Assembly (NCBI GenBank): GCA_034723395.1
Contig: JAYEOW010000029.1
Span: forward strand, 73,293-137,292
Reading direction: 5' to 3'
From: Candidatus Margulisiibacteriota bacterium
GTDB taxonomy: Bacteria > Margulisbacteria > WOR-1 > O2-12-FULL-45-9
DNA: 64,000 nucleotides
The translations under genes and the position numbers were made by a program. Shown one piece after another: positions 15,480 to 63,670 of the stretch. The notes under the pieces were generated by a model, which was given only the letters and a program-made list of their open reading frames with translations, did not search any database and had not been told where the DNA came from. Position 1 is the stretch's first letter; each line of letters starts with the position of its first letter.

Positions 15480-15507
15480 TGAAATTTTTTCCTGAACTTT
15501 CCGAAAG
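15480..15507 (+). promoter_or_regulatory. Weak copy of the sigma-28-like motif (TGAAATTT-N12-TCCGAAAG)
   Basis: The -35 box and 12-nt spacer are conserved. The -10 box matches 5 of 8 positions. Confidence 0.25.
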
Positions 15508-15516
15508 TTATTTGCC

Positions 15517-18500
15517 ATGTCACGTATAACAAAAAACAATGGTGGAAGAGCTGTGTTTCCTCGGGCAATAGCTCTTCATGCTAGAAGAGGATTGTTTAAC
15601 GATCCAACTGCGCGAAAATTCCTCAAGCCGATCTTAAAATTTTGGAAAACGGGCAGAATGGAGCCTTCCTCAAAAGATCTGTTGGCGGTTGAGCGGGAGG
15701 CAATTCTTACGGTTGGAGTTGAAGCGGATTTGAGGAATCTGGCAACCTGCCGCCGAAAAGCCTTAGAAGGATTAGGGTCGAAAAACAGAGAAGAGTATAT
15801 TAACTTATTAATTTCCCTTGGCGCGTGTTACAGGAAAGAGGGGGAACTTGAGGATGCACAACGTCTGCTCCAGGGAATCAGCTTAGTAGAGCCGGGGAAT
15901 TGGTTGGTAAAAGCAGAGTTGGGAATTGTTTGTGGATTGCGAGGAAAGTTAGAATTATCTGTCCGATATTTTAAAGAAGCAGACTCGGTCCTGGAAGCAT
16001 ATGATCGGGAATATGAGGTGGAGGTGGCGGAAAGATGGGAGGCAGCCTCTTTTCGAGCGCGTTTTGAGGCCTTACTTGCGATAGAAAATGATAAAGGAAT
16101 TAGCCAAGCGCGACTCTCCGACATCCTTGCTCCGGTTTTAACTTTTCCCGAGGGATTGGAACTTAACGGTATCAAACAATTTTTTTACCAAAAGTTTGAG
16201 CGTGCATTTATCGCTTTGCTGCAAAGCAAAGCTCCGTTCGACCTGTTTTTTAACCTGTTTTATCGAGGAATAAAAGGAGAAAAAGATGGGGTGGCCGCAA
16301 TGGCCTCGGGAGAGTGGCCGGTCGATGGGAATAGGCTGCTAAAAGAGAGCCAGATGGTTGTGCTTAAGGTGTTGACAAAAAGCGAGAGGGAGATTGATGC
16401 GGTCCAGTTGAAGGATTTATTCGGCGCCGAAAAAGATAGCAAATCGGCGATAACGGTTTATGTTCGGATGAGAGTGCGCGCACTATTAGGAAAGGGGCGG
16501 CTAGATGCCGCTTGTGTGCTTTGGCAGGAAGTCAAAAACAATAAATTGGTTTCTCCCGCCGTGTTGAAGGCCCTCCGTTCCGAATTGAGGGCTGGGGAAA
16601 AGAAGCTGCGGCAGGATGCGGTGATGGACCAGGCTTCGGAATTTCTGCGCCAATTGGAGTTTTTTCAGAAAGCCGGGAATGAAGAGAAACTGCTTAATGA
16701 GCATGGGAAGCTGGCGGACCAAGCTGCTAGATTGTTGGAGGTTGCCGAGGAAGAGACAAAGGATGCGGTAAGAGAAGCGTTGATCGAGTTTGTCGAGTTT
16801 AACCTCCGGACGGCAAAGACTTTGCAGGGAGCGGTCCTATTGGCAGACCGCCTGATCGAATTTGGAGATGAAATTGCGCAAGGAGTTAAAAAGATTTTTA
16901 ATGAAAAGCTTAGCCATGATGGATCAAGAAAGCTTTTCATGGCGGGCCTGGCTAGCGCGAAGGTACAGGTGATCTCGCTTGGGACTATGCTGGCAAAGGG
17001 CAATATCCCGGTAGACGTTACATTTAAAGCTGTGAAAATTTCTAAGAAGAAGAGCCTAAAAATTCCCAATAACGCGGAGTTTAACAAAGTAAAAAGGTTC
17101 TTTGATTTCTTTTTTGTCCGTTTTAGAGAGCATCCCAGGATGCGGACAATGGCGGGAAAGATCGATGTCCCTTTTGCCGAGCCGATTAGCATGGAATCTT
17201 TCTGGTTTTGTTTTATGGCCGCTTTTGACAGCAACATCCATGACCGGACCCATACCTTTGAACTGGCGTTAAGGCTGGACCCAAATAATGTTGTTGCCAA
17301 AATGGAGATAGCGCGCCAATATCTTGCCCTTAAACAGGCCGTCCGCGCTGAGAGGCAGATCGATGAGGTGTTGGAAAAACTTGATCACCCTGCCGGTGTT
17401 TTTAAGGCGCTTACCATTAAGATAATGGCGGTTTGCCAGAAGCTGGCTGCGGCTAATGTCCGGGGTGAGAGATTGGTTGGGATGGTTGGGGAAAATGAAA
17501 AGCTTTTTCAAAGAGCGGAAAGGGAATACGAAAAAATTGCTCCGGAGTTGCGCAGCTCGCCGCTGATTGCGGATGAACTGCGGGGGCTCAACCAGACCCT
17601 TGGACAGATATATACGATGGCGCGTGATTTTGGTAAGGCAGTGGCCTATTACGACAAGACCTTGGAGAGCCGTCCGGGCGGCAAGGTCTATGAGTTGGCG
17701 ATGCGGGCCAAAACCCATTCGCTTTTACTTGAAGGGAAATTTCCGCGGGCGGTCGACTTCTTGTCCCGTCAGATCGCGGAGCTGGCCAAGGACGTGAACC
17801 GCCCGATCCCGGCATCTTTGTATTTTTATTTCGCGGAGGCGATGTTCCATGTAAAATCGCACAAACACGCGCTGACCGCGATCAACCGCGCGCTCGGGAT
17901 TAAAAAGAGGCTCGACCTCATACTTGCGAAGGTCCGTATATTGGCGGCGGCAGGGAAAGTTAGACAGGCGGAGATGATGCTTGATCTTTATGCCGGCCAG
18001 GATGCTCAAGAAACCGGCAAAAAGGGGGAAGAAGGTTCCAAATTTCTTAGGGGACTGCGTGCTTTAGCGGACGCGGAGATCTATCTGGCCAAGGATCGTC
18101 CGCAAGCGGCCATTAAAGCGTTTGAACTGGCGATCAAACTTTTTTCCGGTAATTACAATACGGAGTTTAGGGAGATAGAGTCGAGGTACTATCTGGTTAA
18201 TCTTATTTCGCGGATGGCTGTGGAGGCCGGGAACCAAGGACTTGTCCGCCGCGCGGTCGAAGAGGGAGAGAAGCTTTTGCGAAAATATCCTTTTTTTCCG
18301 CCGGCCCGTCAAGTTATGGTTGGTCCGCTGATGATCTTCGGTAAAGAGTCGGAGGCGTTGGGGCACATCCAATGGCTGGTAAAGCAATCTGGCCGGGGGG
18401 TATCGAGCGATATCCTGGCAAACTTGATCATCAGCGTATTTTCGGAGAACGAGGCAATACAAGAAAAGGCGATTGCGCTCTTTGTCCAGGTAAGGAAGGA

Positions 18501-18636
18501 TACGGCGGATGAGGCGTTCCCGGGAATTTACAAAGCGGCTAAACAGGCGGTCAGATTAATTGCAGCGGACTGGAGCGAAATGCATGACCGGCGGCTGGAC
18601 GATGTCCTGGCGGCGGATACTGCACCCAGGCAATAA
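15517..18636 (+). CDS. Large all-helical TPR-like hypothetical protein (1039 aa)
   Basis: Long ORF with coding-like composition and TPR-like segments such as AELGIVCGLRGKLELSVRYFKEA. No catalytic motif recognised. Confidence 0.7.
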   Translation: MSRITKNNGGRAVFPRAIALHARRGLFNDPTARKFLKPILKFWKTGRMEPSSKDLLAVEREAILTVGVEADLRNLATCRRKALEGLGSKNREEYINLLISLGACYRKEGELEDAQRLLQGISLVEPGNWLVKAELGIVCGLRGKLELSVRYFKEADSVLEAYDREYEVEVAERWEAASFRARFEALLAIENDKGISQARLSDILAPVLTFPEGLELNGIKQFFYQKFERAFIALLQSKAPFDLFFNLFYRGIKGEKDGVAAMASGEWPVDGNRLLKESQMVVLKVLTKSEREIDAVQLKDLFGAEKDSKSAITVYVRMRVRALLGKGRLDAACVLWQEVKNNKLVSPAVLKALRSELRAGEKKLRQDAVMDQASEFLRQLEFFQKAGNEEKLLNEHGKLADQAARLLEVAEEETKDAVREALIEFVEFNLRTAKTLQGAVLLADRLIEFGDEIAQGVKKIFNEKLSHDGSRKLFMAGLASAKVQVISLGTMLAKGNIPVDVTFKAVKISKKKSLKIPNNAEFNKVKRFFDFFFVRFREHPRMRTMAGKIDVPFAEPISMESFWFCFMAAFDSNIHDRTHTFELALRLDPNNVVAKMEIARQYLALKQAVRAERQIDEVLEKLDHPAGVFKALTIKIMAVCQKLAAANVRGERLVGMVGENEKLFQRAEREYEKIAPELRSSPLIADELRGLNQTLGQIYTMARDFGKAVAYYDKTLESRPGGKVYELAMRAKTHSLLLEGKFPRAVDFLSRQIAELAKDVNRPIPASLYFYFAEAMFHVKSHKHALTAINRALGIKKRLDLILAKVRILAAAGKVRQAEMMLDLYAGQDAQETGKKGEEGSKFLRGLRALADAEIYLAKDRPQAAIKAFELAIKLFSGNYNTEFREIESRYYLVNLISRMAVEAGNQGLVRRAVEEGEKLLRKYPFFPPARQVMVGPLMIFGKESEALGHIQWLVKQSGRGVSSDILANLIISVFSENEAIQEKAIALFVQVRKDTADEAFPGIYKAAKQAVRLIAADWSEMHDRRLDDVLAADTAPRQ

Positions 18637-18727: not shown

Positions 18728-19135
18728 ATGAGTGTAGTTAATTTAGCTATAACCGCTACGACTATTCATAGGGCGTTAGCTAAAAGAAAAATGTCTTATC
18801 CCTATTCGTGCCTTTTGAACCATCGTCTTTCGCCGACGATAAGGGCGCTGAAAAAATTGGCCAATATAGATCCGGTAAGATATACTGCCTATCAGGAGAT
18901 GATTGATTTTCTGGTCAATATCGCGAAAAGCCAAAAAGTCAAGGTAAAGCTTACCTTGCATATTCCAGGCCTTGCCGCGTTACGGGTAATTGATGTGGAG
19001 AGATTGATGGAAGATTCGGATGCCCGCAGGGATATTGTTAAACGTTGCTACCTCCCGACCAAAGGGATAATCGATCTCAGACCGCTGATTTTTATCAATA
19101 AATTATACACTCCAGGGATCAAGGCCGCGCTTTAA
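18728..19135 (+). CDS. Hypothetical protein (135 aa)
   Basis: ORF preceded by the sigma-28-like motif and a GGAGG RBS. Confidence 0.6.
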   Translation: MSVVNLAITATTIHRALAKRKMSYPYSCLLNHRLSPTIRALKKLANIDPVRYTAYQEMIDFLVNIAKSQKVKVKLTLHIPGLAALRVIDVERLMEDSDARRDIVKRCYLPTKGIIDLRPLIFINKLYTPGIKAAL

Positions 19136-19154
19136 ATATATTTGCTATTTTACC

Positions 19155-19182
19155 TGAAATTTTTGTTGTAACCCCACGATGA
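19155..19182 (+). promoter_or_regulatory. Degenerate copy of the sigma-28-like motif (TGAAATTT-N12-CACGATGA)
   Basis: The -35 box and spacer are conserved. The -10 box matches 5 of 8 positions. It lies very close to the ATG at 19190. Confidence 0.3.
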
Positions 19183-21052: not shown

Positions 21053-21054
21053 CT

Positions 21055-21759: not shown

Positions 21760-21774
21760 TGTATAATTGATTCT

Positions 21775-25047: not shown

Positions 25048-25057
25048 TTATCCTGAA

Positions 25058-27601: not shown

Positions 27602-27642
27602 GTTGACTATTATAACACAAACTGTTAAACTCTAAAAACGCC

Positions 27643-47348: not shown

Positions 47349-47376
47349 ATATCGGCACTTTTTTAGGTAAATTTCA
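47349..47376 (-). promoter_or_regulatory. Sigma-28 (FliA/SigD)-like promoter TGAAATTT-N12-GCCGATAT
   Basis: The -10 box equals the Bacillus SigD-type GCCGATAT. Confidence 0.55.
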
Positions 47377-47462
47377 CTATTTTTAAAGATTTGTCCGGGC
47401 CGTTTTGGCCCTTTCAGCTATCTTATTATCGGGAGGATTTGGGAGAAATTTCAGGTTATTTT

Positions 47463-49598: not shown

Positions 49599-49614
49599 AA
49601 TGGTTTTCACTCCT

Positions 49615-52005: not shown

Positions 52006-52021
52006 TTCTATTTCCTCCCTT

Positions 52022-55000
52022 TTAGTATGGTCTTACCATGTTCCAATTGATTGAGCTCTGAACAGGTTCGGTTAGCATGTAACCTTTACCTGGGATCAAC
52101 TGTAATGTCGTTGGAGCAGCCAATGTTCCATCTAACCATGTTGCTGATTCGGTATGGACAGCGACGCCATCTACGCCGCCAATTGTGTCGGCGTTTGCGT
52201 CGAAATGATAAGCCATAGCTGCGACTGTCGGACTTGGGGCATAGGATGAGGCATTTAATCCAGCATTAACAATATCAACTGGTATTGGATAAGGGTTAGC
52301 CATCCAGTTGGCAGGCATGGAGGCCCCGCCATCTAAGGTGCGGTCGTAATCGGCTTCTCGGACCATACCTACAAGAGTGATAAATCTACTGGTCATCGTG
52401 AAATAACCATAGGTGTAACCAATTTCAATATCGGTAATTGGGCCTGTGGCGCCAGGATAAGTATCCCAAACACCACCAGAAAAGATCGATCCTTCGGTTA
52501 CGTTTTTGCCGATGTCGAAAGACATGATCATATCCGTATCCGCGGCCTGATTTCCTATTACGTTTTCAAGCGTGGTATCACTTAGCTCTAAAGGACTTGA
52601 GATGAAAAATCTTTCAATTTCGGTCCCAACCGCAATATCAAACTTCCCGGCCACATTGGTCTCCAGGTCGCTATCTTGCAGTGTATTTCCGGTAGGTATA
52701 ATTTTGTAGTATTCTGCGGTTCCTTGTCCAACCTGGTTTTGGATCGTTATGGAGCCAATTGTAACATTGGCCTGTTCCAAAGTCCAATCCGCGGCGGCAG
52801 TCGTAAAATACGAAGTATAGTTGCCATCCGTGTCGGTAGGGCAGGTCAATTTATAAACATCCACGCCGAGTCCCGGAGGGATCGTGTCCCAGGTAATAGT
52901 TATTCCAGAACCTGGATCATCGCCATCGCGGGTGATCTCGATATTTACGATCGGATCTCCGGCAGTAGAGCCGGTTTCAAAAGTAAACGGATTTGGCTGG
53001 GTGCCGGGGATCAAGGCGTGTCCGTTAGCCCCGTCTGCCGCAGTCACGTCAAATTCATATAAAGTATCGATAGCAAAAGGAGTATCGTGGACCAGCGTTA
53101 CCTGGGTAGGTGAATTCCACTCGGCAGCTCTCCATCCTGTTGGATCCGGATTGATCGAATAGGTAAAGGTTGCCGGGTTAATATCCTGGTTAAAGGTGAT
53201 AATAACTTCCTGGTTTAAGGTTACATCGGTTGAAGATTCAACCGGAGTAGTATTAATTATGTATGGAGCTAACTTGCTGGGATCGGTTGACGCCGTAAAA
53301 GTAAACTGGGTTGTGCCAGTTAAAGTTTCTGCCAGGGTGCTTTGCGCGCCGACATCAAATGTATATTCTGTGCCGACAGTGAATAGTTCACCGGCGTGAG
53401 GCAGGCTTGCCCGCGTATTCCCTTCGGTCCAGATAATGCCGTCAAAGTTCACGTTTGGCGTAATGTTCATGCTGAATGTGCTGGTGTCGACCGCGCGGTT
53501 GAACTTGATCGTGACCGGCGCGTTTAACGCGACATCCGTTTCGTTATTAGTCGGATAAGTCTCGGTGACCTGGAACTCTCCGCCGCCGGTGTTAATTACA
53601 AAGTCGGCAGGCCCGGTCCCCCCATTTCCGAGGCCGTCACCACCATAAGGGGTGGTAGGGACCATAAGGTTCCCATCATCGGCTACGGCCATCCATTCGT
53701 ATGCGCCGTCCGCTAGTCCGTCAAAAGTGATCCTTACCGTGGTCCCTGAAGGGACGGGATCGATAGAAATTCTGGTCGGGGGGTCCATCGTCTCCGCTAT
53801 CCGGTATCCGGCGCTTGGAATAATTTCGTCTCCATCCGGATCGATAACTGTGAACTCGACGATTACCGTATTATTATCTGTCTCTTCCCCTTTTTGGAGC
53901 ACAGTTGTCCCGTCATGCGCGTACTGCACCAGGTTTGTCGGATTATTGGGATATTGATTTCCGGCATAGATACTATAATCTTCAAAATTCCCGTCCGGGC
54001 TGTTGCTTAATCCCGCGTATTCCCCATTGTTGTCAACAGAGAGCCCGTCGGCCTTAATGGCGCTGGTTATCTCGGTCCCTGCTCCAGGGATACTGGAGGT
54101 ATTGATCCTGTATATTTTAGTGGTGTTTTCGCCGGCATCCTGCGCCTTTTTGAATACCACTTTGCTGCCGTCCCGGGTAACGTCAAAGGCATTCCATCCG
54201 TACGACCCGGAGACATCACAGGTGACATTTCCGACCAATGATTCGTCGGATGTGTTGTAAGCCTTCACGACAACATCATCGTAACCGTTGACCGCGGCAT
54301 AGAGCCGGTCGTTGCTGAACTTAAGATAAGTAGGGTAGGTAAGATCGGTGTTAATGACCTTCTCGTAAACCACAGTGTCGTTTACGTCTCCGTAGGTAAA
54401 GACGTAGATCTCTCCAGCCGAAACTTTACGGGAAAGATATACCTTGTACGAAGTGGCGCTGGTCGAAGTGACCGCGATATCATAAAGATTGGTCTTTCCA
54501 GCGAGATTAGTGATAACCGCTTTAACATAGGTGTCGTTTAAGGTATCGAAGATAAGCATTCTGCCGATACCCTGATCAGCGACAAAGAGGCGGTTGTTGC
54601 CGCCAACAGCCATTCCGGCAGGAGAAGATGCGGACGCCCAATAGGCGCCGGTCATCTCATTGACGGTCCCGGTAGGAATACCGGTAGAAGGGGTTAACCC
54701 ATGAGCCTGGACGGCAGAGTTTTTACCGTTGCTGATGCTTATATATAATGTATCCCCGTTTGGTGAAACGGCGAGCCCGTAACATTTGGAACCGGCCGGA
54801 AGTGGGATCGTGCCCGCGACAGTACCTTTCCATTCGTAAGGAATGGTCGCGGATTTCGCGTATATTTTAATTTGCGGGACTGAGTTGTCGACGATATAAA
54901 GCGTATCGGAGATCGGGTTGATCGCGCTTTTGGCGGGGGTAACCGCGGTAATTGCGTGAGCTGAAGCGCTAAGGCCGATCAGCAGGGCCGTTAAAAAGAG

Positions 55001-55030
55001 CAGATATTTAAAATACTTTTTTATCTTCAT
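52022..55030 (-). CDS. Secreted 1002-aa surface protein with beta-propeller-like repeats and Big/SbsA-type Ig domains
   Basis: Signal peptide MKIKKYFKYLLFLTALLIGLSASAHA. TPVESSTDVTLNQEVIITFNQDINPATF is SbsA_Ig-like. Confidence 0.8.
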   Translation of the reverse strand: MKIKKYFKYLLFLTALLIGLSASAHAITAVTPAKSAINPISDTLYIVDNSVPQIKIYAKSATIPYEWKGTVAGTIPLPAGSKCYGLAVSPNGDTLYISISNGKNSAVQAHGLTPSTGIPTGTVNEMTGAYWASASSPAGMAVGGNNRLFVADQGIGRMLIFDTLNDTYVKAVITNLAGKTNLYDIAVTSTSATSYKVYLSRKVSAGEIYVFTYGDVNDTVVYEKVINTDLTYPTYLKFSNDRLYAAVNGYDDVVVKAYNTSDESLVGNVTCDVSGSYGWNAFDVTRDGSKVVFKKAQDAGENTTKIYRINTSSIPGAGTEITSAIKADGLSVDNNGEYAGLSNSPDGNFEDYSIYAGNQYPNNPTNLVQYAHDGTTVLQKGEETDNNTVIVEFTVIDPDGDEIIPSAGYRIAETMDPPTRISIDPVPSGTTVRITFDGLADGAYEWMAVADDGNLMVPTTPYGGDGLGNGGTGPADFVINTGGGEFQVTETYPTNNETDVALNAPVTIKFNRAVDTSTFSMNITPNVNFDGIIWTEGNTRASLPHAGELFTVGTEYTFDVGAQSTLAETLTGTTQFTFTASTDPSKLAPYIINTTPVESSTDVTLNQEVIITFNQDINPATFTYSINPDPTGWRAAEWNSPTQVTLVHDTPFAIDTLYEFDVTAADGANGHALIPGTQPNPFTFETGSTAGDPIVNIEITRDGDDPGSGITITWDTIPPGLGVDVYKLTCPTDTDGNYTSYFTTAAADWTLEQANVTIGSITIQNQVGQGTAEYYKIIPTGNTLQDSDLETNVAGKFDIAVGTEIERFFISSPLELSDTTLENVIGNQAADTDMIMSFDIGKNVTEGSIFSGGVWDTYPGATGPITDIEIGYTYGYFTMTSRFITLVGMVREADYDRTLDGGASMPANWMANPYPIPVDIVNAGLNASSYAPSPTVAAMAYHFDANADTIGGVDGVAVHTESATWLDGTLAAPTTLQLIPGKGYMLTEPVQSSINWNMVRPY

Positions 55031-55033
55031 CGA

Positions 55034-56071
55034 TTATTCCCCCTGCGACAGATTGAGCGTGACCGACACCGGCGCGTAATAGGTGGCGTCGACCGCTGAT
55101 CTGGCGTCGATATAAACTTTGTAGCCGAACTCGACACCGGTCTCTCCGGTTTCGTTGCATACCGGAGGGATGTCAATGACATACGGAGCCATATTGCTCG
55201 CGTCTTCGGTGCAAACCGTGCCGATTCTTTGAGAATTCGAAGGGTCAAAACCTGGGTTGAGTAAGTCTTCCGGGCTGAAGTACCGGTTATCTTCGAAGTG
55301 TGTGGGTTCTCCATCAGCATAACATATCAGGTAGTAATATGCCAGGTATAGGGGGAGCCGGTTGTTGGCGTCATCCGGGCAAGACCAAAGCTTATCGTAT
55401 TCCGGGGTTTCGCATCCCGAAATTCCCCAGAGCTCACGGTTTTCATACTCTTCGGCGGTTAACATGCCGAGATTGATCAAACCGTCAAAACAACCCATCA
55501 CGATGTCAGGGCTGTCGATGATCCCGTTGCCGTCCCAGTCGATCTGGATAGCGAGCGGGTTGCTAGCGACCCTGATCTCGAGGTCAACACTTTGCAGGCC
55601 GGAGCCGACTAGACGGCCGGACCTTACTGCAAGTAATCCAGTTCCCTGGATAAGATCGGTTCCTGAACTTTCGATATGATCGACAAAACCGCTCCCGATA
55701 AATAAGTTGCCGCCATCATCGGTCGGGTGGGGGATCGATCCATCCATGACACCGCCGTCGCTGGGGTCCATTACATGTCCGTCGCCAATATGGTCGACAA
55801 TGTTGTCCCCTGACGCTCCGCCGCATCCCACGGCGCTGATCTCAGATTTGCTGGACCATATATCACTGACCCAGTTGATCGCTCTTTTGTAAAAGGGCTC
55901 TTCAGCCTTAAGTTTAAACGCGATAGAAGGCAGATCAATATTGGCGGCTGGTTTCGGCTCTGCGGCCGGCTCGTTTGCGATACACATTCCTTCGTCAGCG
56001 CTGTACTGCCCGACGACATCTCCGCTCCTTTTGCTCACCACATTGTAATTCATTGATAGATCGAAACTCAT
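55034..56071 (-). CDS. Signal-peptide-less protein (paralogue A): conserved ~100-aa N-terminal domain plus an EF-hand/dockerin-like Ca-binding loop
   Basis: Its N-terminus aligns with paralogue B at 61467..63068 (YN..Y.R.G.LV..Y...C...EP.APE...YKR..N.V...W.SKS...AVGCG). DWDGNGIIDSPD is an EF-hand loop. Strong RBS AAGGAGGA. Confidence 0.8.
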   Translation of the reverse strand: MSFDLSMNYNVVSKRSGDVVGQYSADEGMCIANEPAAEPKPAANIDLPSIAFKLKAEEPFYKRAINWVSDIWSSKSEISAVGCGGASGDNIVDHIGDGHVMDPSDGGVMDGSIPHPTDDGGNLFIGSGFVDHIESSGTDLIQGTGLLAVRSGRLVGSGLQSVDLEIRVASNPLAIQIDWDGNGIIDSPDIVMGCFDGLINLGMLTAEEYENRELWGISGCETPEYDKLWSCPDDANNRLPLYLAYYYLICYADGEPTHFEDNRYFSPEDLLNPGFDPSNSQRIGTVCTEDASNMAPYVIDIPPVCNETGETGVEFGYKVYIDARSAVDATYYAPVSVTLNLSQGE

Positions 56072-56164: not shown

Positions 56165-58336
56165 TCAGGTCTTTTTTCCGGCATTCGGGTTTAATGTGTT
56201 TATGTCATTTACTCCCAGGTAATCGAGTATATCTTTTGCCCCTTTTGCAAGCCTTAGCGCCGTTTGCTGCATATCCCAGGCTGTTTGCCCGAGCCGCGCG
56301 TCGATCTTATCGGCATTAGCGATTATTTTTTCCGCTTGTGCTGAAACTTTTTCGGTCTCCAAAGATAACATCCGCATACCGTCTTTAACGCTGCCGGGTT
56401 TGCTGGCCGGATCGATATCCTGAAGAATGGTTGCCATGTCTGTAAAAATTCGCTTTTTTTCTGCCTCGTATTTGGAGCTAAGCGATGCACGGCTGCTGTC
56501 TAATAATCTTTGGGTTATTCCCAATCGTTTTTCTTTCATGGTTATGAGTCGGGAATTTTTGTCTGGATCGGAGCTCAGTTCAGCGATCTCTTTTTTAAGG
56601 CTGTCCACGGTTTGCCCTAGTTCCGGTATGTTTTCGTCTTTGGCTAAAGCATTTTTATACCATTTATCTAACTGGTCAAGCTGGAATTTAAAAGACATCC
56701 TTGCGCCTTCGATGGTCTCTTTTAGGGCGTCGGTTTCGGAGGCAAGGTTACCAAGGGCATGGGCTCGGGCCATAAGGTCCCGGTTTTTTGCCCTGAGCGC
56801 ATCAGCAGTTTTGCCTTCGGCGGCTTCTTTTGCGGCAGTTGCCTGACCAAGATCATGTTCGGCGACCTGCAGAGCGGTTTTGAGGTCGACGACTTGATTG
56901 CGGGCAATTTTTAGTTTCGCTTCCAGCGAAGCGGTCGCCTCTCTAATAGCCGCCTGCGTATCTACTATTTTTGCCGCTTCGTTTATTGCTCCTGACGGAA
57001 ACGTCTTTGTCGCGCTCGATCCTGTTTCTACCTTGATACCCATTTCATCGACTCCATGAATCTTTTCCTTTTCGAAAAGGAAAAGGGTAATATTATCTTT
57101 TGAGGTTAAAACTGCTTTATTCATTAATTCTCGCGCGGTTTCGGCGACCGGCGATAATTTATTTTCGGTCAATATTTCTTTTATCCTTTTAAACGTCATT
57201 TCCTGCAGGCCGTCAGAAAGGACCAGGAAACGGTCCCCTTCCTTGATTGCCACTTCTGTGACAGTGATATCAATTTCATCCTTTCCCAGGGATTGAAGAA
57301 TAACGTTAGCCCTGAGGTTGTTTTTTCCGGCATCGAGCTTTTTAAGATAATCCTCTCCGTATGGGGCTCTTGTATCTTTTTCTCCGCTCTTTTCCTCTAC
57401 TTCGAGGCGTGCTAATCCTCCTATTACTGAATCGGGGGCGGTCAGGAGCTCCAATTCCCCGCCATATTTCGAACGAACGATCAAGCTGTCCCCGATATGC
57501 GCGACGCGGGCGCTCTTTTCGCCGATCTCAAGGATCGCCAATGTGGTATCGGGACAATGTGCTTCATGCGGAGCATAGCCGTACTCAGTTTTATATGAGG
57601 TTTTAAAATCAGAAATGTATTTTCTTAGTCCTTTGCTGGCGGCATCGACAATATTGGGCAGATCTAATCCATTTTCGATCGCGAGCATGGCCGCGGAAAG
57701 GGCGATATCCGAAGCGACCTCTCCATTTGCCGCTCCGCCCACGCCGTCGGCGACCAGGAGATATTTTTTTCCGTTCGCTTCAACATAAGCCATTCCATCC
57801 TGATTATTTTTCCTTCCGCCTACATTAGTGATGCCGTATATTCCTTTGTCCGATAGGTCTATCTCTCCGTTTTTTATGCCGCCGGAGCGGATGTCACAGT
57901 TGGGAAGGCGGGCATATAGTTCACCTATCAGTTCCTCTATTGCCTTATCTTCATGTCCGATCCAGTTTCGGGCGGCCACAAAGATATGCACGGGTTGCTC
58001 ATAACTCTCCTGCGCAAGCAATGCCCTTAGGGCTTTTTTGGTGCTTTCCGGATTACCGTTTTCAAGTACCTTTATTTGCGCTTCTTCGGGGCGGGGAGGG
58101 GGAATGTTCGCAGGTTTTTCCGCGGGCAGCTTCATTAATGCTAATGTGAGTTGTCCTTGTAATGCAAGGGCCTCCATTTTTATTTTCCCGTCAACTTGCG
58201 CCTGTCCCAATGCGATCGGCTGGATAACATTTTGTAGAAGTTTTGCGAGAGGGCCCCTCCACCTTGCTTGTGGTATTGTTTTTTTCCTGATGTTGCGCAA
58301 GTGGGCTAAAGTTATTTTTCCAAAATTAACAGGCAT
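56165..58336 (-). CDS. PP2C-family Ser/Thr phosphatase with a long C-terminal coiled coil
   Basis: LVADGVGGAANGEVASDIALSAA is the PPM motif. Its start overlaps the kinase stop. Confidence 0.85.
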   Translation of the reverse strand: MPVNFGKITLAHLRNIRKKTIPQARWRGPLAKLLQNVIQPIALGQAQVDGKIKMEALALQGQLTLALMKLPAEKPANIPPPRPEEAQIKVLENGNPESTKKALRALLAQESYEQPVHIFVAARNWIGHEDKAIEELIGELYARLPNCDIRSGGIKNGEIDLSDKGIYGITNVGGRKNNQDGMAYVEANGKKYLLVADGVGGAANGEVASDIALSAAMLAIENGLDLPNIVDAASKGLRKYISDFKTSYKTEYGYAPHEAHCPDTTLAILEIGEKSARVAHIGDSLIVRSKYGGELELLTAPDSVIGGLARLEVEEKSGEKDTRAPYGEDYLKKLDAGKNNLRANVILQSLGKDEIDITVTEVAIKEGDRFLVLSDGLQEMTFKRIKEILTENKLSPVAETARELMNKAVLTSKDNITLFLFEKEKIHGVDEMGIKVETGSSATKTFPSGAINEAAKIVDTQAAIREATASLEAKLKIARNQVVDLKTALQVAEHDLGQATAAKEAAEGKTADALRAKNRDLMARAHALGNLASETDALKETIEGARMSFKFQLDQLDKWYKNALAKDENIPELGQTVDSLKKEIAELSSDPDKNSRLITMKEKRLGITQRLLDSSRASLSSKYEAEKKRIFTDMATILQDIDPASKPGSVKDGMRMLSLETEKVSAQAEKIIANADKIDARLGQTAWDMQQTALRLAKGAKDILDYLGVNDINTLNPNAGKKT

Positions 58337-60663
58337 TATACTGGACCTCCCTTGAGAACAAGGCTGGATACTTTGGCCATTAGCATAGGATATTGTAATT
58401 GGACATCCGGATCGGATGAATATTCGGCAAGTATCCTGCTGAGATTTTGCACGACAGTTTGTAGGTCTTTTGCAGTTAACATGTCAGGTTTTGTGAATAG
58501 ATCCTGCTGGACAGTTAACATATAAGTGATCACGCTTGCCCGGTTTTGGAGATCAAATTCGCCAGCTTTAGGCAGTAACGTTACATCATCAAGCGTGCTC
58601 TCGGGTATTTCCGGCGCCTTGGGGGCGGCAGGCTTGAATGATGGCTGAAGGGTTCTTTTTGCGATCGCCGCTCCACTTGGCCTTGGTTCCACCCCTTTTT
58701 TTGCCGGTTTTTGGCCAGCCAGGGCATCTTCTTCAGGGACCTTTTGCATCGCAGTCGGCTCAAATGCCGCCGGAGCAAAGGATCCCGGGGTTCTTGGGGT
58801 AGCTTCGGTTTTTGTTTTACCATTTGAACCGCTCAGGGGTTTAAAGGCGGATGAGACGTCGGCCATAGAGTGGAAGTTGTGTTCCGGATCGTGCGATATC
58901 ATCTTGGTTACGATCTTGCGCAATCCCTCATGAGGAATGTCTTCTAGAGGAATGTCTTCTAGGGCTTTTTGAAGCATTGCCTGATATTTTGGCTCACCCG
59001 GATTTACCAAATATTTCATGTAGAATTCAGATTGTTTCAGGCTTTTTAACGGATTTTCTCCGGTTATACATTCGAGCATGGTAATTCCAAGCTCGTAGAT
59101 GTCAATTAAAGCGTTCAATCCTTTTTGGGTCTTTGCTATTACAGAGTAGGCGTAAGGGGCCATATAGTACGGGCTCCCGACGACATGCTGTCCGGCGGTC
59201 AGGGTCGCTTCGGTAGTATCTTTGGCAATACCAAAATCGATAATAACCACTTTTTCTTTGCCTTGAGCGTCTTTGGTGAGCACCAGGTTTTTTGGTTTAA
59301 TATCCCGGTGATAAATGTCGTGTTGATGGGCATAACTTAAGGCGTCGATTACCGGAGCAAAGAGCTTGATGGCGCGTTTGTGGGTAAGGCCGGTTTTGGC
59401 GATGCCATCGAGGTTTGGCGCCGGATCGTCTGAACCGGGCTTATCAGGGACAAACTCGGTTACGATAAAAATATCCCCCGCCTCCTTGAGCTGGCTGATC
59501 TCGAAGGTGTGTTTAAATTTTTCCGGTCTAGTAATGTTTGGAAATTTAACGTCTATATTTGTGTCTACGGTCGAACAGATATTAGGATGCTTTATTTTCT
59601 TGCCAGAGGTGAATTCGAGCCATGCGCGCTGTAAAAATGCCATGACCGTGTTTTTTGATTCTTCGGATTCCGAAATAGCCCCTTTTGCGGCAGTTGATAC
59701 CTTTAGCGCGTATTTGTGCCCGGTTACGTTTTCAACCAGAAGGACTTCGCCCATTCCGCCTTTTCCAATAACGCCTAACTCTTTATAATGGGAGAGGGTC
59801 CCCGAATAATCGAAAGCGGCCTGGTCAACGCCTCCAGTTTGAGGCAGGTCCATGCTATCAAGCGGGATAATTTCATCCGCAGCAGTTTTTCCGCCGGTAA
59901 CCGCCCTGTCGACTGCGGCATCCAGTTTTTCTCTATGCTCAGGAATAAACAGTTCGGTTACTTTGGTCCCTGCTTCGGTTGTTTTTGGTCTTCCATCAGC
60001 TCTGGTATAAGGGAGAAGCGCCTTCGCGAGAATATCCTCGTTATCAGTAAATGCATCATAAATTACTTTTTCTGCTTTTGATTTGATAATTTTTGTCGCG
60101 GCAAAATGGGTTATTCCGCCCAGGATAGCGCCAAGAAGCGCGTTGCTTCCAACAAGAACTCCAGCTGCGGCGGCCGCGCTTTTTCCTAATATTAACGGAA
60201 AGAATATTCCAACGCTGGCAAAAACGCTGACAAAAGGGAGGGCCGCCCCGATCGCGATCGGAAGGGCATATATTAAGGCTTTCCATTTTCCCGCCAACTT
60301 CGGTCCTGAAAAATTAGTGATCGCCTGGTCTATTTCTGCTACTTTTGCTTCTTGTCCGGGTGGGGGGAGGGGATCCACTTTCATAGTAGTTTTTGCGGGC
60401 GGATGTGGTGCTGTTGTAGTTGCGCCGGTTTTGGTGTTTATCTCTCCGCTTACCGATATGTTTGGGTTGCCTTTTAAAAGCGAATCAGGAGCTTTTGGAC
60501 CGCCGGATGAAGGAACGGTTCCCATTATCATCCAAAGCGGAGCGGTTAATAGCTGAAATAATTTTGGGTGGCGCTGAGAAAAAGGATTTCTCTGTTGTTT
60601 TGGCGGCGCCATTTTCTTTTGCAACTGATTTAATCTTACCGGGCTAATATATCTTCCGATCAT
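58336..60663 (-). CDS. Hanks-type Ser/Thr protein kinase with N-terminal TM segments and a C-terminal extension
   Basis: GVIGKGGMGEV (Gly loop), YHRDIKPKNLVL (catalytic loop), DFGIA and GSPYYMAP. The start was set at ATG 60663 (MIGRYISP, RBS GGGAGG) rather than the track start at 60708. Confidence 0.85.
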   Translation of the reverse strand: MIGRYISPVRLNQLQKKMAPPKQQRNPFSQRHPKLFQLLTAPLWMIMGTVPSSGGPKAPDSLLKGNPNISVSGEINTKTGATTTAPHPPAKTTMKVDPLPPPGQEAKVAEIDQAITNFSGPKLAGKWKALIYALPIAIGAALPFVSVFASVGIFFPLILGKSAAAAAGVLVGSNALLGAILGGITHFAATKIIKSKAEKVIYDAFTDNEDILAKALLPYTRADGRPKTTEAGTKVTELFIPEHREKLDAAVDRAVTGGKTAADEIIPLDSMDLPQTGGVDQAAFDYSGTLSHYKELGVIGKGGMGEVLLVENVTGHKYALKVSTAAKGAISESEESKNTVMAFLQRAWLEFTSGKKIKHPNICSTVDTNIDVKFPNITRPEKFKHTFEISQLKEAGDIFIVTEFVPDKPGSDDPAPNLDGIAKTGLTHKRAIKLFAPVIDALSYAHQHDIYHRDIKPKNLVLTKDAQGKEKVVIIDFGIAKDTTEATLTAGQHVVGSPYYMAPYAYSVIAKTQKGLNALIDIYELGITMLECITGENPLKSLKQSEFYMKYLVNPGEPKYQAMLQKALEDIPLEDIPHEGLRKIVTKMISHDPEHNFHSMADVSSAFKPLSGSNGKTKTEATPRTPGSFAPAAFEPTAMQKVPEEDALAGQKPAKKGVEPRPSGAAIAKRTLQPSFKPAAPKAPEIPESTLDDVTLLPKAGEFDLQNRASVITYMLTVQQDLFTKPDMLTAKDLQTVVQNLSRILAEYSSDPDVQLQYPMLMAKVSSLVLKGGPV

Positions 60664-60723
60664 TCTAATTATTCCTCCCAATCTATATTGTTCTTGCCCT
60701 AAAGGCACACTATCTCTATGTAT

Positions 60724-60751
60724 TTATCGGTAAGTTATCCATATAATTTCA
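60724..60751 (-). promoter_or_regulatory. Sigma-28 (FliA/SigD)-like promoter TGAAATTA-N12-ACCGATAA
   Basis: Matches the motif consensus. Lies about 60 nt upstream of the kinase start. Confidence 0.5.
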
Positions 60752-60867
60752 CTTTTTCGTCAAATTCTTTTTGGAAATTTTCCCGCGTTCATTATATATG
60801 TTGATGTTACGCGGGATCCCGCAGAGCGGGACACTTTTATGGGAAATAATTGTTAAGTAGTTTTGTA

Positions 60868-60904
60868 GTATTGTAGTGTTGTAGTTTTGGGGGTAATTGT
60901 CGAG
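60868..60904. repeat. GTAGT(N)TTGTAGT oligorepeat forming the left inverted repeat of the four-helix-bundle cassette
   Basis: gtagttttgtagtattgtagtgttgtagtttt is the reverse-complement partner of 61431-61460. Confidence 0.5.
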
Positions 60905-61008
60905 ATATTTTAGGTTTCAGCTGTGTTTGTGAGGGGGCAATGGGATTGCTATTCTATTCTTAAGTAGGATCGTAGTGTTGCAGTTAATAGTATAGGAGGA
61001 GATGGGAG

Positions 61009-61344
61009 ATGAATGGTTTTAAGGATTTGATAGTGTGGCAGAAGGGGTATGAGTTGTCGTTGTTGGTATATAAAATAACTAATAATTATCCAATGCGCTC
61101 CTGTTCAATTTCGGTTCCTGCTAACATTTCCGAGGGTTATGAGAGAAGAAGTAAAAAGGAGTATCTCTATTTTCTAAATGTAGCTAAGGGATCATTAGGT
61201 GAGCTGGAAACCTATTTATTGCTTTCTCGGGATTTGAATTTTATTAATGAGAATGAATGGAGAGAGCTAGAAGATCTGCGAGAAATAACTCTGCGCCTCC
61301 TAAGGGGTTTGATGAGGTCCGTTAGAGACAAGCTTAACCTTTAA
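61009..61344 (+). CDS. Four-helix-bundle protein (23S rRNA intervening-sequence protein family, Avd-like)
   Basis: FKDLIVWQKGYEL...SVPANISEGYERRSKKEYLYFLNVAKGSLGELETYLLLSRDL matches the TIGR02436-type pattern. Confidence 0.8.
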   Translation: MNGFKDLIVWQKGYELSLLVYKITNNYPMRSCSISVPANISEGYERRSKKEYLYFLNVAKGSLGELETYLLLSRDLNFINENEWRELEDLREITLRLLRGLMRSVRDKLNL

Positions 61345-61394
61345 CCGGTACTTTTCCATACTGAGTTTTACATTATATATAAGTGGGGGCGGGG

Positions 61395-61460
61395 ATGTAG
61401 TCTTGTAGTGTTGTAGTGTAGGAACCAATACTACGATACTACCACACTACAGCACTACTA
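61395..61460. repeat. Imperfect long hairpin (gtagtcttgtagtgttgtagtgtagg ... ctacgatactaccacactacagcactac), right end of the four-helix-bundle cassette
   Basis: Reverse-complement comparison done by eye. Confidence 0.5.
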
Positions 61461-61466
61461 AATCGC

Positions 61467-63068
61467 TCAGTCCCCCCAAAGCGAGATTGGGATCGAAGTG
61501 GTGTTTGTCTGATAGTTCTCGTCGGTAATTGTTAAGTATGCGGTGTGGGCAGCGTTGTTTCCCGCTCCCGGATTAGGATAGGCGTGAGAAAATAGTCCGG
61601 TTGCGTTGGATTCGGCCGGTGACCCGTCGCCGTAGAATAGCTCATAATTAATGATGCCGGCGCCAATTGGCGAGTAACTGTGGGTGGCGTCAAAATCGAT
61701 GTTATAGCCGGAACCAGGGCCGCTGGCTGGATTATGGGCAGCGGTGATGGCCGGCATAGGGACAGACTGACCATATACTTCTAATGTCCTGATATAATAA
61801 TTTGTTGTTTCATTATCTCCGGCAGTAACCAGACATTTAAAAGCGTAATTTCCCAGAAGATCAAAAGTATATGGAAGGAGAGTTGCTCCTGCGAAATTTT
61901 CGATCGTCTGTCCGTTGCCGTTTGGCCCCGGACGGGTAATTGTCCAGGAAAAGGTCGCCGCTGGATCGTCGGAATTACAGATAATATTCGGGTTCTCTGC
62001 TGTATCATCCAAACCGTAGGAATAGTTTAAATAACCGATGGTAACTGATGGTATTTCGGTATTAGTTGAAGGGTTGTTAATAACCAAACCTGCAGCGGCC
62101 GATTCGGGAATTAGAAAGGCGTTGGTGGATTTATCCTTAACTTTGATCCCGATCGGATAGTATCCGGGATTCCATTCGTTAGTGGTATTAATATCCGCAT
62201 AAAATGTGTTTAGCCCGGGAGTGGCTTCGTACGACTGATTATTAATAATGAAAAAGACCTGGAGATGGCCAGCTTCGGCCACTGGTGTATCATTGCAGTC
62301 AAAGATCGCTTCCATCGGGAAGAAGAGAGAGGCCGATTCTCCGGGAATGACTTCAGAGGGATCAACCTGAACTCTATATCCGGGGGTGACCTTTGGTTTT
62401 GGATAAAGATCGCAGGTATCTTGAGGCGGAGTAGAAAACTCAAGCTGAGTATAAATGAATTTTTCCAATAGCAGCTCTCCGCTTGAGTCTCTGATCTCAG
62501 CCCTGATCGGCGGGCCCCAGATCTCATTGGCAACGATCGATGCGGAGAAGATTTTCGTATCGGTATCATAGGCCATGGGGACGCCAACCGCAGTATCGCC
62601 GGAATCTAATGAAGAGTTTGCAAATAGGGTAACGGTAAGCGCAGCAGGATCATCAACACATTCGGGCTTGGTAATCGCGAGATCAAAGGAGACGGTTGAA
62701 CCCAGCTCTATCTTTCCCGAAGAGTTGAAGCTTGAAGCGTTGACCGTCAGGTTGCCGAAGGCGGAGTCTAAAGAGGTACAGCTTTCGTTAACATTCCCGC
62801 CGGTGATCCATTCCCCGCAGCCGACGGCTCCATCGGACTTTGAGGTCCAGAGATTCTTAACACCATTTACCAGGCGCTTGTACCAGGCCGGTTTGGCATT
62901 TGATTCGATCGCGGCGTGGAACTCGATCGCGAGCGGAGAGGCATATTTAACGTCTTCCGGAGCGCTCGGTTCTGGAGAAACGCACTGCTGGGAATTCATG
63001 TCGTAGGCGCTGACTAATTCCCCGTTTCTGTAAATATTGTATATTCCATTATCTCCAGCGATATCCAT
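61467..63068 (-). CDS. Signal-peptide-less protein (paralogue B): conserved N-terminal domain plus PKD domains
   Basis: N-terminus is homologous to paralogue A. C-terminal INYELFYGDGSPAESNATGLFSHAYPNPGAGNNAAHTAYLTITDENY matches the PKD motif. Confidence 0.8.
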   Translation of the reverse strand: MDIAGDNGIYNIYRNGELVSAYDMNSQQCVSPEPSAPEDVKYASPLAIEFHAAIESNAKPAWYKRLVNGVKNLWTSKSDGAVGCGEWITGGNVNESCTSLDSAFGNLTVNASSFNSSGKIELGSTVSFDLAITKPECVDDPAALTVTLFANSSLDSGDTAVGVPMAYDTDTKIFSASIVANEIWGPPIRAEIRDSSGELLLEKFIYTQLEFSTPPQDTCDLYPKPKVTPGYRVQVDPSEVIPGESASLFFPMEAIFDCNDTPVAEAGHLQVFFIINNQSYEATPGLNTFYADINTTNEWNPGYYPIGIKVKDKSTNAFLIPESAAAGLVINNPSTNTEIPSVTIGYLNYSYGLDDTAENPNIICNSDDPAATFSWTITRPGPNGNGQTIENFAGATLLPYTFDLLGNYAFKCLVTAGDNETTNYYIRTLEVYGQSVPMPAITAAHNPASGPGSGYNIDFDATHSYSPIGAGIINYELFYGDGSPAESNATGLFSHAYPNPGAGNNAAHTAYLTITDENYQTNTTSIPISLWGD

Positions 63069-63623
63069 TTATACCACGACCTCTCCAATCTTTAACTTTT
63101 TTAACAGTTTTACTTGTAATTTATGCGGAACCTTTTGGGCATCCAGTTCTCTTTTTAACGCTGTAATATCATCATCATTTTTTACGAGCGATTTCAGTTG
63201 ATTTATACTTTTTCGTTTTTTTACAAAACGGACCAGTTTTTCGACCCCCAGGGTCAAGAACCCTCCAACTACGCCGATCGTCCCAATCGCGGCGGCGGCA
63301 AAGCTCGAAGCTGCCAGGAGCAATGCTCCGCCAACGGCGACCCCGGCGGCGCCGATGGCTTTGGCGGTTGAAAACCTGACTTCGGGTTTCTTAGATGGCT
63401 CTACGATGTTTTTTGCGTCCACAATTACTTCGATGCCGGAGAGAACGGTTAAAATAGCGCCTGGAGCGATCGCTCCCAATCCCCAGATACCTACGGCGGC
63501 GGTTGGGATAACAAAGCCGGGTCTTTTCCTGGCAAAACGTACAGTCGCATAAGGAGAACGCGCGCTGTTATTATACTTCCGGACGGCAGTTCTTACTCGT
63601 GATGGTAATGTTGTTGCGATCAT
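63069..63623 (-). CDS. Small membrane protein (2-4 TM) with a C-terminal charged helix
   Basis: Hydrophobic segments FVIPTAAVGIWGLGAIAPGAILTVL and AIGAAGVAVGGALLLAASSFAAAAIGTIGVVGGFL. RBS GGAGGAAACAG. Confidence 0.7.
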   Translation of the reverse strand: MIATTLPSRVRTAVRKYNNSARSPYATVRFARKRPGFVIPTAAVGIWGLGAIAPGAILTVLSGIEVIVDAKNIVEPSKKPEVRFSTAKAIGAAGVAVGGALLLAASSFAAAAIGTIGVVGGFLTLGVEKLVRFVKKRKSINQLKSLVKNDDDITALKRELDAQKVPHKLQVKLLKKLKIGEVVV

Positions 63624-63642
63624 GCTGTTTCCTCCTAATACA

Positions 63643-63670
63643 TTATCGACACTTTTCGGGTAAAATTTCA
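63643..63670 (-). promoter_or_regulatory. Sigma-28 (FliA/SigD)-like promoter TGAAATTT-N12-GTCGATAA
   Basis: Matches the motif consensus. Lies 20 nt upstream of the start at 63623. Confidence 0.5.

Follow-up and report, generated by a model that had tools for sequence, protein, structure and literature searches.

A stretch of 64,000 nucleotides (nt) from Candidatus Margulisiibacteriota bacterium (assembly GCA_034723395.1, contig JAYEOW010000029.1, positions 73,293 to 137,292; hereafter the window, with positions counted from its first letter) carries repeated copies of a bipartite motif, TGAAAT-N16-CGATA(A/T), in front of genes for surface, signalling and regulatory proteins. This motif is a promoter class common to the uncultured Margulisbacteria and Saganbacteria, and it almost certainly belongs to an alternative sigma factor of some kind. 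The factor that reads it is probably a compact relative of FliA (sigma-28), which is encoded in genomes of the same lineages and whose own operon is preceded by the motif.

The exact pattern TGAAATTW-N14-CGATAW is found seven times in the window and not once in 100 dinucleotide-preserving shuffles. TGAAAT-N16-CGATAA has eight copies where none (0) is expected, to which two degenerate copies can be added, and allowing up to two mismatches gives 11 matches, against a shuffle mean of 1.53 and a maximum of 5. The spacing is also constrained, N16 being found at eight sites as compared with zero or one for each of the alternatives in the range N13-N19. Intergenic DNA makes up about 6% of the window, yet it holds nine of the ten motif sites; the remaining site falls within the final codons of dnaG. 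Each of the ten faces a start codon located 7-60 nt downstream, most of these starts being preceded by a GGAGG ribosome-binding site. About half of the coding sequence of the window lies 3' of motif sites, if operons are taken to be abutting open reading frames (ORFs) on the same strand. The six copies that an initial annotation of this DNA had described as clear were all recovered by exact matching, with their coordinates and strands. Its two weaker copies also exist, with a degenerate -10 half (CGATGA at 19155 and CGAAAG at 15480) and a position that is kept in relatives, and two more, at 47426-47453(-) and 7246-7273(-), had been overlooked.

Conservation of the motif can be followed in loci retrieved from relatives and scans, which are designated by L-numbers. 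L002 is syntenic with the window at ~80% nucleotide identity and L001 is a more distant syntenic relative, with proteins 30-80% identical to those of the window. In both loci three orthologous intergenic sites are kept, 5' of the genes for a 184-amino-acid (aa) protein, a kinase and a 345-aa protein, while the surrounding bases differ. A scan of one genome per species (185,579 species) with the pattern AAAGTGAAATT-N15-CGATAA returned at least 118 stretches. Among the matches listed, 78 of 122 belong to Margulisiibacteriota, Saganbacteria, WOR-1, Termititenax or metagenome-assembled genomes (MAGs) assigned to this clade, where MAGs without a taxon name were placed on account of repeated intergenic matches (several each). 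In the clade matches listed, the longest ORF spanning each site has a median length of ~70 aa, a Shine-Dalgarno sequence and a start codon come next, and the twelfth base, left unspecified in the pattern, is T in 82% of the sites. The 44 matches listed from other phyla, in contrast, fall within long ORFs, with a median of 370 aa, and look like random occurrences. In addition, 530 kb of clade DNA hold 35 independent secondary core sites and 316 kb of other taxa hold 0, and in the motif-triggered loci of relatives the N16 spacing is found at 113 sites, as compared with at most one for any other spacing. Among the matches listed, intergenic copies are found almost solely in Margulisbacteria, Saganbacteria and WOR-1. 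One locus labelled as uncultured Dehalococcoidia (L114, SRP077602_co2_112) shows a perfect motif in the typical context, together with homologues of the Big_5 protein and the kinase of the window; the label of this MAG is probably wrong, or its bin is mixed.

The consensus of 82 independent clade sites reads aaaaa-g-TGAAATTTt...(A-rich)...T-g-c-CGATAa-N5-T-R-G. CGATA(A/T) is invariant in the eight strict sites of the window, the six orthologous sites and these 82 sites; the -35 element shows no variation in the clade at position 2 (G) or position 6 (T), and TTT is conserved after TGAAAT. The initial annotation had written the -10 half with a preceding (G/C)C. Its core stands as TGAAAT-N16-CGATA(A/T), but the two preceding bases are weak (G 41%, C 39%). 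After CGATAA, a T is found at +6 in 59% of the 82 sites and a purine at +7 in 94%, and this purine, which is as expected for a transcription start, most likely marks the place where transcription begins. Such a position is compatible with sigma-28 promoters, whose starts are located about 7-8 nt 3' of the final A of the -10 element.

The motif differs in consensus from the housekeeping pattern TTGACA-N17-TATAAT, and promoters of the latter kind coexist with it in the window. A canonical TTGACA-N17-TATAAT promoter is found at 14583-14710(-), and further near-consensus sigma-70 promoters at 27602-27642 and 42765-42844. The site at 4943-4970, cited in the initial annotation as a housekeeping promoter devoid of the motif, is indeed a canonical TTGCCA-N16-(TGt)TATAAT promoter, located before a PorV-like gene whose true start is the GTG at 4990. 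The window also contains a dnaG-rpoD pair, and the DNA-contact regions of this RpoD are canonical, regions 2.4 and 4.2 matching the contact residues of Escherichia coli sigma-70. As canonical promoters coexist with the motif and RpoD is itself canonical, an alternative sigma factor is needed, in agreement with the claim of a promoter class distinct from the housekeeping one. At 27602-27642, two divergent canonical promoters are packed into a 41-bp gap, and the TATAAT of the phosphoglucomutase gene lies ~9 nt before the ATG, which suggests that this mRNA is leaderless.

RpoD and E. coli FliA queries found no sigma factor gene in the 118 motif-triggered loci. The compact sigma factor was reached by walking from the flagellar genes of L026, a motif-rich MAG locus that encodes fliK-flgD-flgE-fliM-fliN-fliO-fliP (1-4574) and whose FliP has homologues named Margulisiibacteriota and Saganbacteria. 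The operon runs on with fliQ, fliR, flhB and flhA, followed in most loci by a gene for a protein of 80-130 aa and then by a 70-aa gene and the gene for a sigma factor of 191-205 aa. The sigma factor is very conserved in the clade, with an overall length of 191-210 aa. It is encoded by the last gene after flhA in L122, L123, L124, L125, L128 and L129, and it stands alone in L126 and L127; overall, it closes the flagellar export operon in about half of the loci of relatives, while elsewhere the module consists of the two small genes and the sigma factor gene, with no flagellar genes. The initial annotation had reasoned that, in the absence of flagellar genes, a flagellar sigma factor had been recruited to another function, which is too simple in view of this position. 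A total of 346 homologues were found (E<=1e-5), the best 120 of the 346 sharing 64-100% identity with the query, and every one that carries a taxon name is assigned to Margulis, Sagan or WOR-1.

The two small proteins encoded before the sigma factor are conserved (L126 9553-10004, L128 9400-10008, L123 15053-15555). The protein of 80-130 aa holds the motif ...FAKMV..LA..(I/V)(V/M)TNP(E/D)LRRQ..., and the gene for the 70-aa protein overlaps the start of the sigma factor gene. These proteins gave no Pfam or PDB-sequence match, nor did the two 70-aa proteins tested match any NCBIfam family; they are candidates for an anti-sigma factor or a chaperone. The flagellar cluster of the clade is compact in L122, L124 and L128, comprising fliK, at times a flgD-like gene, a ~280-aa FlgE/G-like protein and fliM to flhA, and no fliF/G/H/I, rod, motor or filament genes are found near it.

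With regard to its relatedness, a profile of the sigma factor family searched against PDB sequences returned FliA, sigma-28 and WhiG as the top seven matches (E from 7e-13 to 3e-7), followed by SigF and RpoS, and no ECF (extracytoplasmic function) sigma factor at E<=0.01. Domain 4 corresponds to Sigma70_r4 (40.7 bits) and not to r4_2 (14.6 bits, below the cut-off), while the generic sigma70-ECF superfamily model is also passed (66-80 bits, cut-off 42.9). A fold search placed group-3 sigma factors at the top, with the models of Bacillus subtilis SigB and SigD, then WhiG and sigma-28; by itself this search does not separate group 3 from ECF, given TM-scores of 0.3-0.4, which are low because the two domains are freely oriented. 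The σ2 domain spans residues 24-102 and σ4 residues 136-190, leaving 33 residues between them instead of the ~90 of FliA. This short gap, together with the relatedness to FliA and WhiG, indicates a sigma factor of the FliA clade without domain 3.

The sigma factor and the motif are linked by their genetic context. Scanning metagenomes with the alignment of the family yielded 80 sigma loci, and 58 of these had enough upstream sequence. In 21 of these 58, a perfect TGAAAT-N16-CGATAA lies just 5' of the first small gene of the module, and in 25 the match is at least 11 of 12 positions, as compared with 0.55 expected. This is seen both with and without flhA upstream, and 21 of the 27 perfect sites in the 533 kb of sigma loci are in that position. 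Both elements have the same taxonomic range and are found together in WOR-1 RIFOXYB2_FULL_48_7, and the MAG of L026 probably also has both the motif and the sigma factor (P0144). As the sigma factor is present in both branches of the clade, it would be expected to be encoded in the genome of the window too.

Further support comes from the residues used for promoter recognition. In the open complex of Pseudomonas aeruginosa sigma-28, Y76, R80 and D87 contact C-13, G-12 and A-11, R97 reads the GC of the extended -10, and Q228 is the -35 specificity residue (PMC12784957). Alignment shows that the equivalents of Y76, R80 and D87 are invariant in the compact family (Y82, R86 and D93), while the equivalent of R97 is Val and that of Q228 an invariant Arg. 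If the correspondence of residues to bases can be carried over through this alignment, the pattern fits a promoter in which the CGATAA core has been retained, the GC is weak and the -35 element has changed.

Several observations weigh against this assignment. Only rpoD, and no other sigma factor gene, is encoded in the 64-kb window, and a motif 5' of the sigma operon would be equally expected from a cascade in which another sigma factor reads it. The initial annotation had proposed a FliA-group sigma factor, and this holds insofar as the nearest relatives are FliA and WhiG and the motif lies at the operon of the sigma factor in the clade, but the protein is no canonical FliA. Its best specific family in NCBIfam is FliA_WhiG (TIGR02479), with scores of 71.1 and 71.6 bits for a cut-off of 189.6, where E. 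coli FliA reaches 292, and it lacks the three-domain σ2-σ3-σ4 architecture; strict membership of the FliA family fails on these two features. The structure model has a mean pLDDT (predicted local distance difference test) of 67.7, a moderate confidence, and stays below 50 in the linker (104-135). The transcription starts have been placed from the sequence. Moreover, the motif was not seen at late flagellar genes: queries with E. coli FliC, FliD, FliS, FlgK, FlgL, FlgM, MotA, MotB, Tar, CheA and CheW found no late gene (flagellin, flgKL, fliDS, motAB or flgM homologue) in any retrieved locus. Finally, the loci selected by the sigma factor contain only six perfect sites outside the autoregulatory position in 533 kb, which indicates that the regulon is clustered and smaller than the density in the window suggests. 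An extrapolation of regulon size from the window (~1.25 sites per 10 kb) has consequently been revised down, these loci being far sparser.

An ECF (group 4) sigma factor reading a promoter of sigma-W-like layout would explain the hexamer spacing and the T-rich tail after the -35 element, both of which are matched, as well as the rigidity of the spacing. It would also agree with the two-domain size of the compact sigma factor and its score against the superfamily model, and the motif 5' of its own operon fits autoregulation in the ECF style. However, we regard this explanation as unlikely, since the hallmark AAC of the -35 and CGT of the -10 are replaced by invariant AAT and CGA, and the protein itself resembles FliA and WhiG in the profile search, has the other type of domain 4 and is encoded at the fliA/sigD position, at the end of a flagellar operon. 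In addition, a single ECF group conserved across a whole phylum-level clade would, to our knowledge, be atypical. It is likewise improbable that a different alternative sigma factor reads the motif and that the compact one is a mere target in a cascade. Such an arrangement would be compatible with the reading of genome fragments, in which the link consists of co-occurrence, promoter likeness and the motif 5' of the sigma operon. Nevertheless, the -10 core is exactly that of sigma-28, the residues that would read it are invariant in the compact family, the distribution of this family is that of the motif, and no further sigma factor gene was found with RpoD and FliA queries in ~1.2 Mb of clade DNA.

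Explanations without an alternative sigma factor have even less in their favour. A conserved bipartite sequence near start codons, followed by short hairpins after the 47426 and 56119 copies, could be the operator of a regulator or a 5'-leader RNA element rather than a promoter; this is very unlikely, because the half-sites are unrelated and form neither a palindrome nor a direct repeat, the orientation is fixed, the 16-nt spacing is rigid and the T-purine step comes next, while start codons follow at anything from 7 to 60 nt. In the window Rfam identified five tRNAs only, none of its families overlapping any motif site, and the short intergenic regions in question show no other evident promoter. 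The motif also bears a loose likeness to TTGACA and TATAAT, and it could be written as gTGAAA-N18-GATAAt, a variant housekeeping promoter read by RpoD, for which a preprint on incomplete lists of canonical promoters in Margulisbacteria (10.64898/2026.09.23.753901) could be invoked. This possibility is scarcely credible, as RpoD is canonical in the regions that read the -10 and the -35 element, near-consensus TTGACA-N17-TATAAT promoters are present in the window, and the would-be T-7 is not conserved (A 52%, T 34%), whereas the C and G before ATAA are invariant.

According to the preferred reading, in which the compact FliA-like sigma factor recognizes the motif, the promoter consists of A-rich DNA, then TGAAATTT as the -35 element, a spacer of fixed length, CGATA(A/T) as the -10 core and, 6-7 nt downstream, a T-purine step, and its likely reader would be a sigma factor of ~195 aa of the FliA/WhiG (sigma-28) clade, with domains 2 and 4 only. 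A sigma-A promoter is found 5' of the flagellar-type export operon in L122, and a promoter of this kind would yield the compact sigma factor, which, through the motif before the module, would reinforce its own operon. Its holoenzyme would then drive about nine transcription units in the window, equivalent to about half of the coding sequence, switching on a clustered promoter set that would here comprise surface proteins, two signalling modules and rpoD. An inducing signal that controls the sigma factor is a presumed element of this explanation. A much more speculative proposal, and a rather doubtful one, is that this domain-3-less descendant of FliA acts as the global second sigma factor of Margulisbacteria and Saganbacteria, with its gene still at the end of a flagellar-type type III export operon, and is gated by one of the two small proteins co-transcribed with it, which would be a secreted anti-sigma factor resembling FlgM. 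Depending on its state, the export apparatus would in this way turn on tens to 100 or more promoters, including those of rpoD and of lineage-specific, seemingly signal-peptide-less proteins, some of which might be export substrates that build the surface.

The targets in the window include surface and outer-membrane proteins with Big_5, TIG/He_PIG and PorV-like/SLH domains, a protein with a twin-arginine translocation (TAT) signal, a putative lipoprotein, a Ser/Thr kinase-PP2C pair, a histidine kinase-response regulator operon and rpoD, and several others that match no Pfam family appear to lack signal peptides. In the clade, the 65 first genes 3' of sites are mostly Pfam-less, and their N-termini suggest that most of these products have no signal peptide either. 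Recognisable clade targets are Com-type zinc ribbons, RRM proteins, kinases, TPR proteins, phosphoglucose isomerase (pgi), phosphofructokinase (pfk), a GGDEF protein, a LacI regulator and topoisomerase I (topA); no flagellar family is present among the 25 families listed for the 65 downstream products. The initial annotation had spoken of an envelope regulon, which fits the surface and signalling genes of the window but not rpoD in the window nor topA, pfk, pgi, RRM proteins and others in the clade. This term therefore describes the window and not the whole regulon. Small Com-type zinc-ribbon proteins (MKDFRCKFCHRLLAKV...KCPKCKTMNL) are encoded directly 3' of the motif in different clade genomes (L015, L082, L086, L115), and many products of the clade regulon start with basic, Ser/Thr/Arg-rich N-termini.

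The likeness to sigma-28 promoters pointed out in the initial annotation is borne out: the core -10 CGATA(A/T) is identical, and a long T-rich -35 element has its AAA at equal distance, with GAAA 15 nt upstream of the 8-mer. The sigma-28 consensus is TAAAGTTT-N11-GCCGATAA in E. coli and TAAA-N15-GCCGATAT in B. subtilis; TGAAATTT agrees with TAAAGTTT at six of eight positions with a 12-nt spacer, where the class has 11-12 nt, or as GAAA-N15 at three of four at the standard distance. As in the case of sigD, the gene of the compact sigma factor is the last of a flagellar operon, and the protein has kept the contact residues for C-13, G-12 and A-11. In contrast to sigma-28, the -35 element of the clade is TGAAAT and not TAAAG, the GC of the extended -10 is weak and Val takes the place of the Arg by which it is read, the spacing is invariant, the sigma factor lacks domain 3 and scores below the family cut-off, and no flagellar gene has been seen 3' of a site.

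The sigma-28 of Chlamydia is one case of a flagellar sigma factor re-used for a non-flagellar function, and WhiG, which has all three sigma domains, is another. In Streptomyces and Rubrobacter, WhiG has been re-used for sporulation or type IV pili (PMC8325347). WhiG combines membership of the FliA clade and its promoter type with a non-flagellar regulon that includes signalling proteins, as the clade sigma factor would, and it is among the best profile and fold matches. The promoters of WhiG have retained the standard TAAA/GCCGATAA consensus, and its control is exerted by RsiG and cyclic di-GMP, while the clade sigma factor is truncated and its -35 and extended -10 elements are changed. The promoter of B. 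subtilis sigma-W is TGAAAC-N16-CGTATA; an ECF system of this type shares with the clade a two-domain sigma factor, the rigid 16-nt spacing, a likely positive autoregulation and, in the window, envelope-related targets, and it differs in having AAC and CGT instead of AAT and CGA and in the sequence relatives of the sigma factor, which are here FliA and WhiG.

Promoter copies, their orthologous sites and the transcription units downstream of them (window positions unless a locus is given)
Feature	Position	Strand	Evidence and context
Promoter copy TGAAATTT-N12-GTCGATAA	63643..63670	-	Exact match; 19 nt before the ATG of the 184-aa membrane protein gene; GGAGG present
Orthologous sites of the 63643 copy	L001 5613, L002 7547		Intergenic, motif kept
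184-aa two-transmembrane protein and 533-aa PKD-like protein apparently without signal peptide	61467..63623	-	ORFs; no Pfam match; syntenic in L001 and L002; operon extent predicted from abutting ORFs
Promoter copy TGAAATTA-N12-ACCGATAA	60724..60751	-	Exact match; 60 nt before the kinase ATG at 60663
Orthologous sites of the 60724 copy	L001 8344, L002 9903		Motif kept
Ser/Thr protein kinase and PP2C phosphatase unit	56165..60708	-	Pfam Pkinase, PP2C_2
Promoter copy TGAAATTA-N12-ATCGATAA	56119..56146	-	Exact match; 47 nt before the 345-aa gene
Orthologous sites of the 56119 copy	L001 14620, L002 15890		Motif kept
345-aa paralogue, 1002-aa Big_5 protein, 796-aa He_PIG/TIG/CBM11 protein and 651-aa PorV-like/SLH outer-membrane protein	47655..56071	-	Pfam; predicted operon extent
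Promoter copy TGAAATTT-N12-CCCGATAA	47426..47453	-	In tandem with the 47349 copy; followed by hairpin GGGCC-aaaac-GGCCC
Promoter copy TGAAATTT-N12-GCCGATAT	47349..47376	-	Exact match; 31 nt before the 310-aa TAT-signal protein gene (46385-47317)
Promoter copy TGAAATTT-N12-GCCGATAA	46345..46372	-	Exact match; 29 nt before the 212-aa and 755-aa genes (43388-46315)
Promoter copy TGAAATTT-N12-CCCGATAA	18679..18706	+	Exact match; 21 nt before the 135-aa gene (18728-19135)
Weaker copy TGAAATTT-N12-CACGATGA	19155..19182	+	One mismatch; 7 nt before the ATG of the 620-aa gene
620-aa gene, then methyltransferase, seven-transmembrane histidine kinase and sigma-54-type response regulator	19190-26284	+	Pfam (downstream genes)
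Degenerate copy TGAAATTT-N12-TCCGAAAG	15480..15507	+	Two mismatches; 9 nt before the TPR protein gene (15517-18636)
Copy TGAAATCG-N12-TCCGATAA	7246..7273	-	In the last dnaG codons; 17 nt before the rpoD ATG (rpoD 6173-7228)

The copy that precedes rpoD is embedded in coding sequence, the dnaG stop codon TAA being part of its CGATAA. The C-terminus of DnaG (...LKSEI....VR*) encodes the rpoD promoter (window 7228-7273), AAA-AGT-GAA-AT being translated as K-S-E-I. The embedded promoter recurs 5' of rpoD in a Saganbacteria/WOR-1 genome (L080 7797; 7797-7850), whose DnaG is only 53% identical. In E. coli, the heat-shock promoter PHS of rpoD lies inside dnaG and is read by sigma-32. In both cases the gene of the primary sigma factor is driven by an alternative one, through a promoter placed within dnaG towards its 3' end; they differ in the sigma factor and the consensus, and in the clade the -10 element shares bases with the dnaG stop codon and two classes have the site in common.

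The less conserved copies also have counterparts in relatives. L093 repeats the layout found at 18.7 kb, with a motif, a small ORF, a second motif and a homologue of the 620-aa gene, and its site at 5561, in the position that matches 19155, is perfect. The homologue of the TPR gene in L001 is preceded by CGAAATTT-N12-GTCGATAT, and CGAAGA variants, comparable to the degenerate 15480 copy, are found at the equivalent position in some sigma operons. Both weak copies (19155 and 15480) and the site of the sigma operon in L126 end 6-9 nt before the ATG.

Regarding the products of the other units, the kinase of the window is 100% identical to a 775-aa protein of a Candidatus Margulisiibacteriota MAG. 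The similarity of the 651-aa protein to PorV was detected by tblastn, and the WOR-1 relative L058 has the motif directly 5' of its SLH/PorV-like orthologue. Two paralogues of the PorV/PorQ outer-membrane family (47655-49610 and 4858-6192) are encoded in a genome that does not belong to Bacteroidota, one of them with C-terminal SLH domains, and the 796-aa neighbour of the PorV-like/SLH protein ends in a FlgD_ig-like domain. The 345-aa (55034-56071) and 533-aa (61467-63068) proteins share a paralogous N-terminal region of ~85 aa (…KRxxNxVxxxWxSKS…VGCG), which appears to contain no signal peptide. The 212-aa product of the 43388-46315 unit is a putative lipoprotein, as read from its N-terminus. 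The possibility that the 184-aa gene 3' of the 63643 site encodes an ECF sigma factor under its own control was rejected, as its product has no sigma domains and looks like a two-transmembrane protein.

Other elements are found between the genes of the window. GC-rich intergenic hairpins, CCCTCTCCC-N3-GGGAGAGGG, lie at 36368-36388, 42792-42812, 43246-43266 and 47520-47540, with related ones at 14652/14713, 36308/36424, 42724, 43204/43301 and 47588, often flanked by CCCTCACCC or GGGTGAGGG. They look like repetitive extragenic palindromes or terminators, and they bracket a DUF559-type ORF at 42845-43225. The 758-bp gap at 60709-61466, between two motif-driven operons, holds an ORF on the opposite strand (61009-61344(+)) for a four-helix-bundle protein of the 23S-rRNA-intervening-sequence type. 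This ORF has a counterpart in L001 (7725-8102, PF05635) and none in L002, and in the window it is flanked by short repeats of the ACTAC type.

Margulisbacteria and Saganbacteria are uncultured sister lineages of Cyanobacteria. A literature search returned no description of the motif or of the compact sigma factor, the matches to the motif string being irrelevant. Published work has described flagellins and flagellar operon genes of the FlgV type from Margulisbacteria. These bacteria are not mentioned in the FlgV paper's supplements, and the main genome paper on Margulisbacteria and Saganbacteria mentions neither flagella nor sigma factors. Margulisbacteria have also been described as often giving incomplete shortlists of canonical promoters (10.64898/2026.09.23.753901), which fits, although it does not prove, a second widely used promoter class.

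No earlier report is known on the organisation of transcription in Margulisbacteria and Saganbacteria. A sharply defined promoter with a strong candidate sigma factor offers a direct means of annotating transcription units, together with a major regulon, across all MAGs of the clade, and the motif is a possible reason for the under-performance of canonical-promoter predictors in these bacteria. The promoter and the 195-aa sigma factor are also parts that may be tested in vitro or serve as orthogonal expression tools. From an evolutionary point of view, this sigma factor would represent a natural experiment in which domain 3 and the extended -10 contact have been lost while the core -10 code has been kept, and a further case of a flagellar sigma factor in non-flagellar duty, which here would include the control of the gene for the primary sigma factor.

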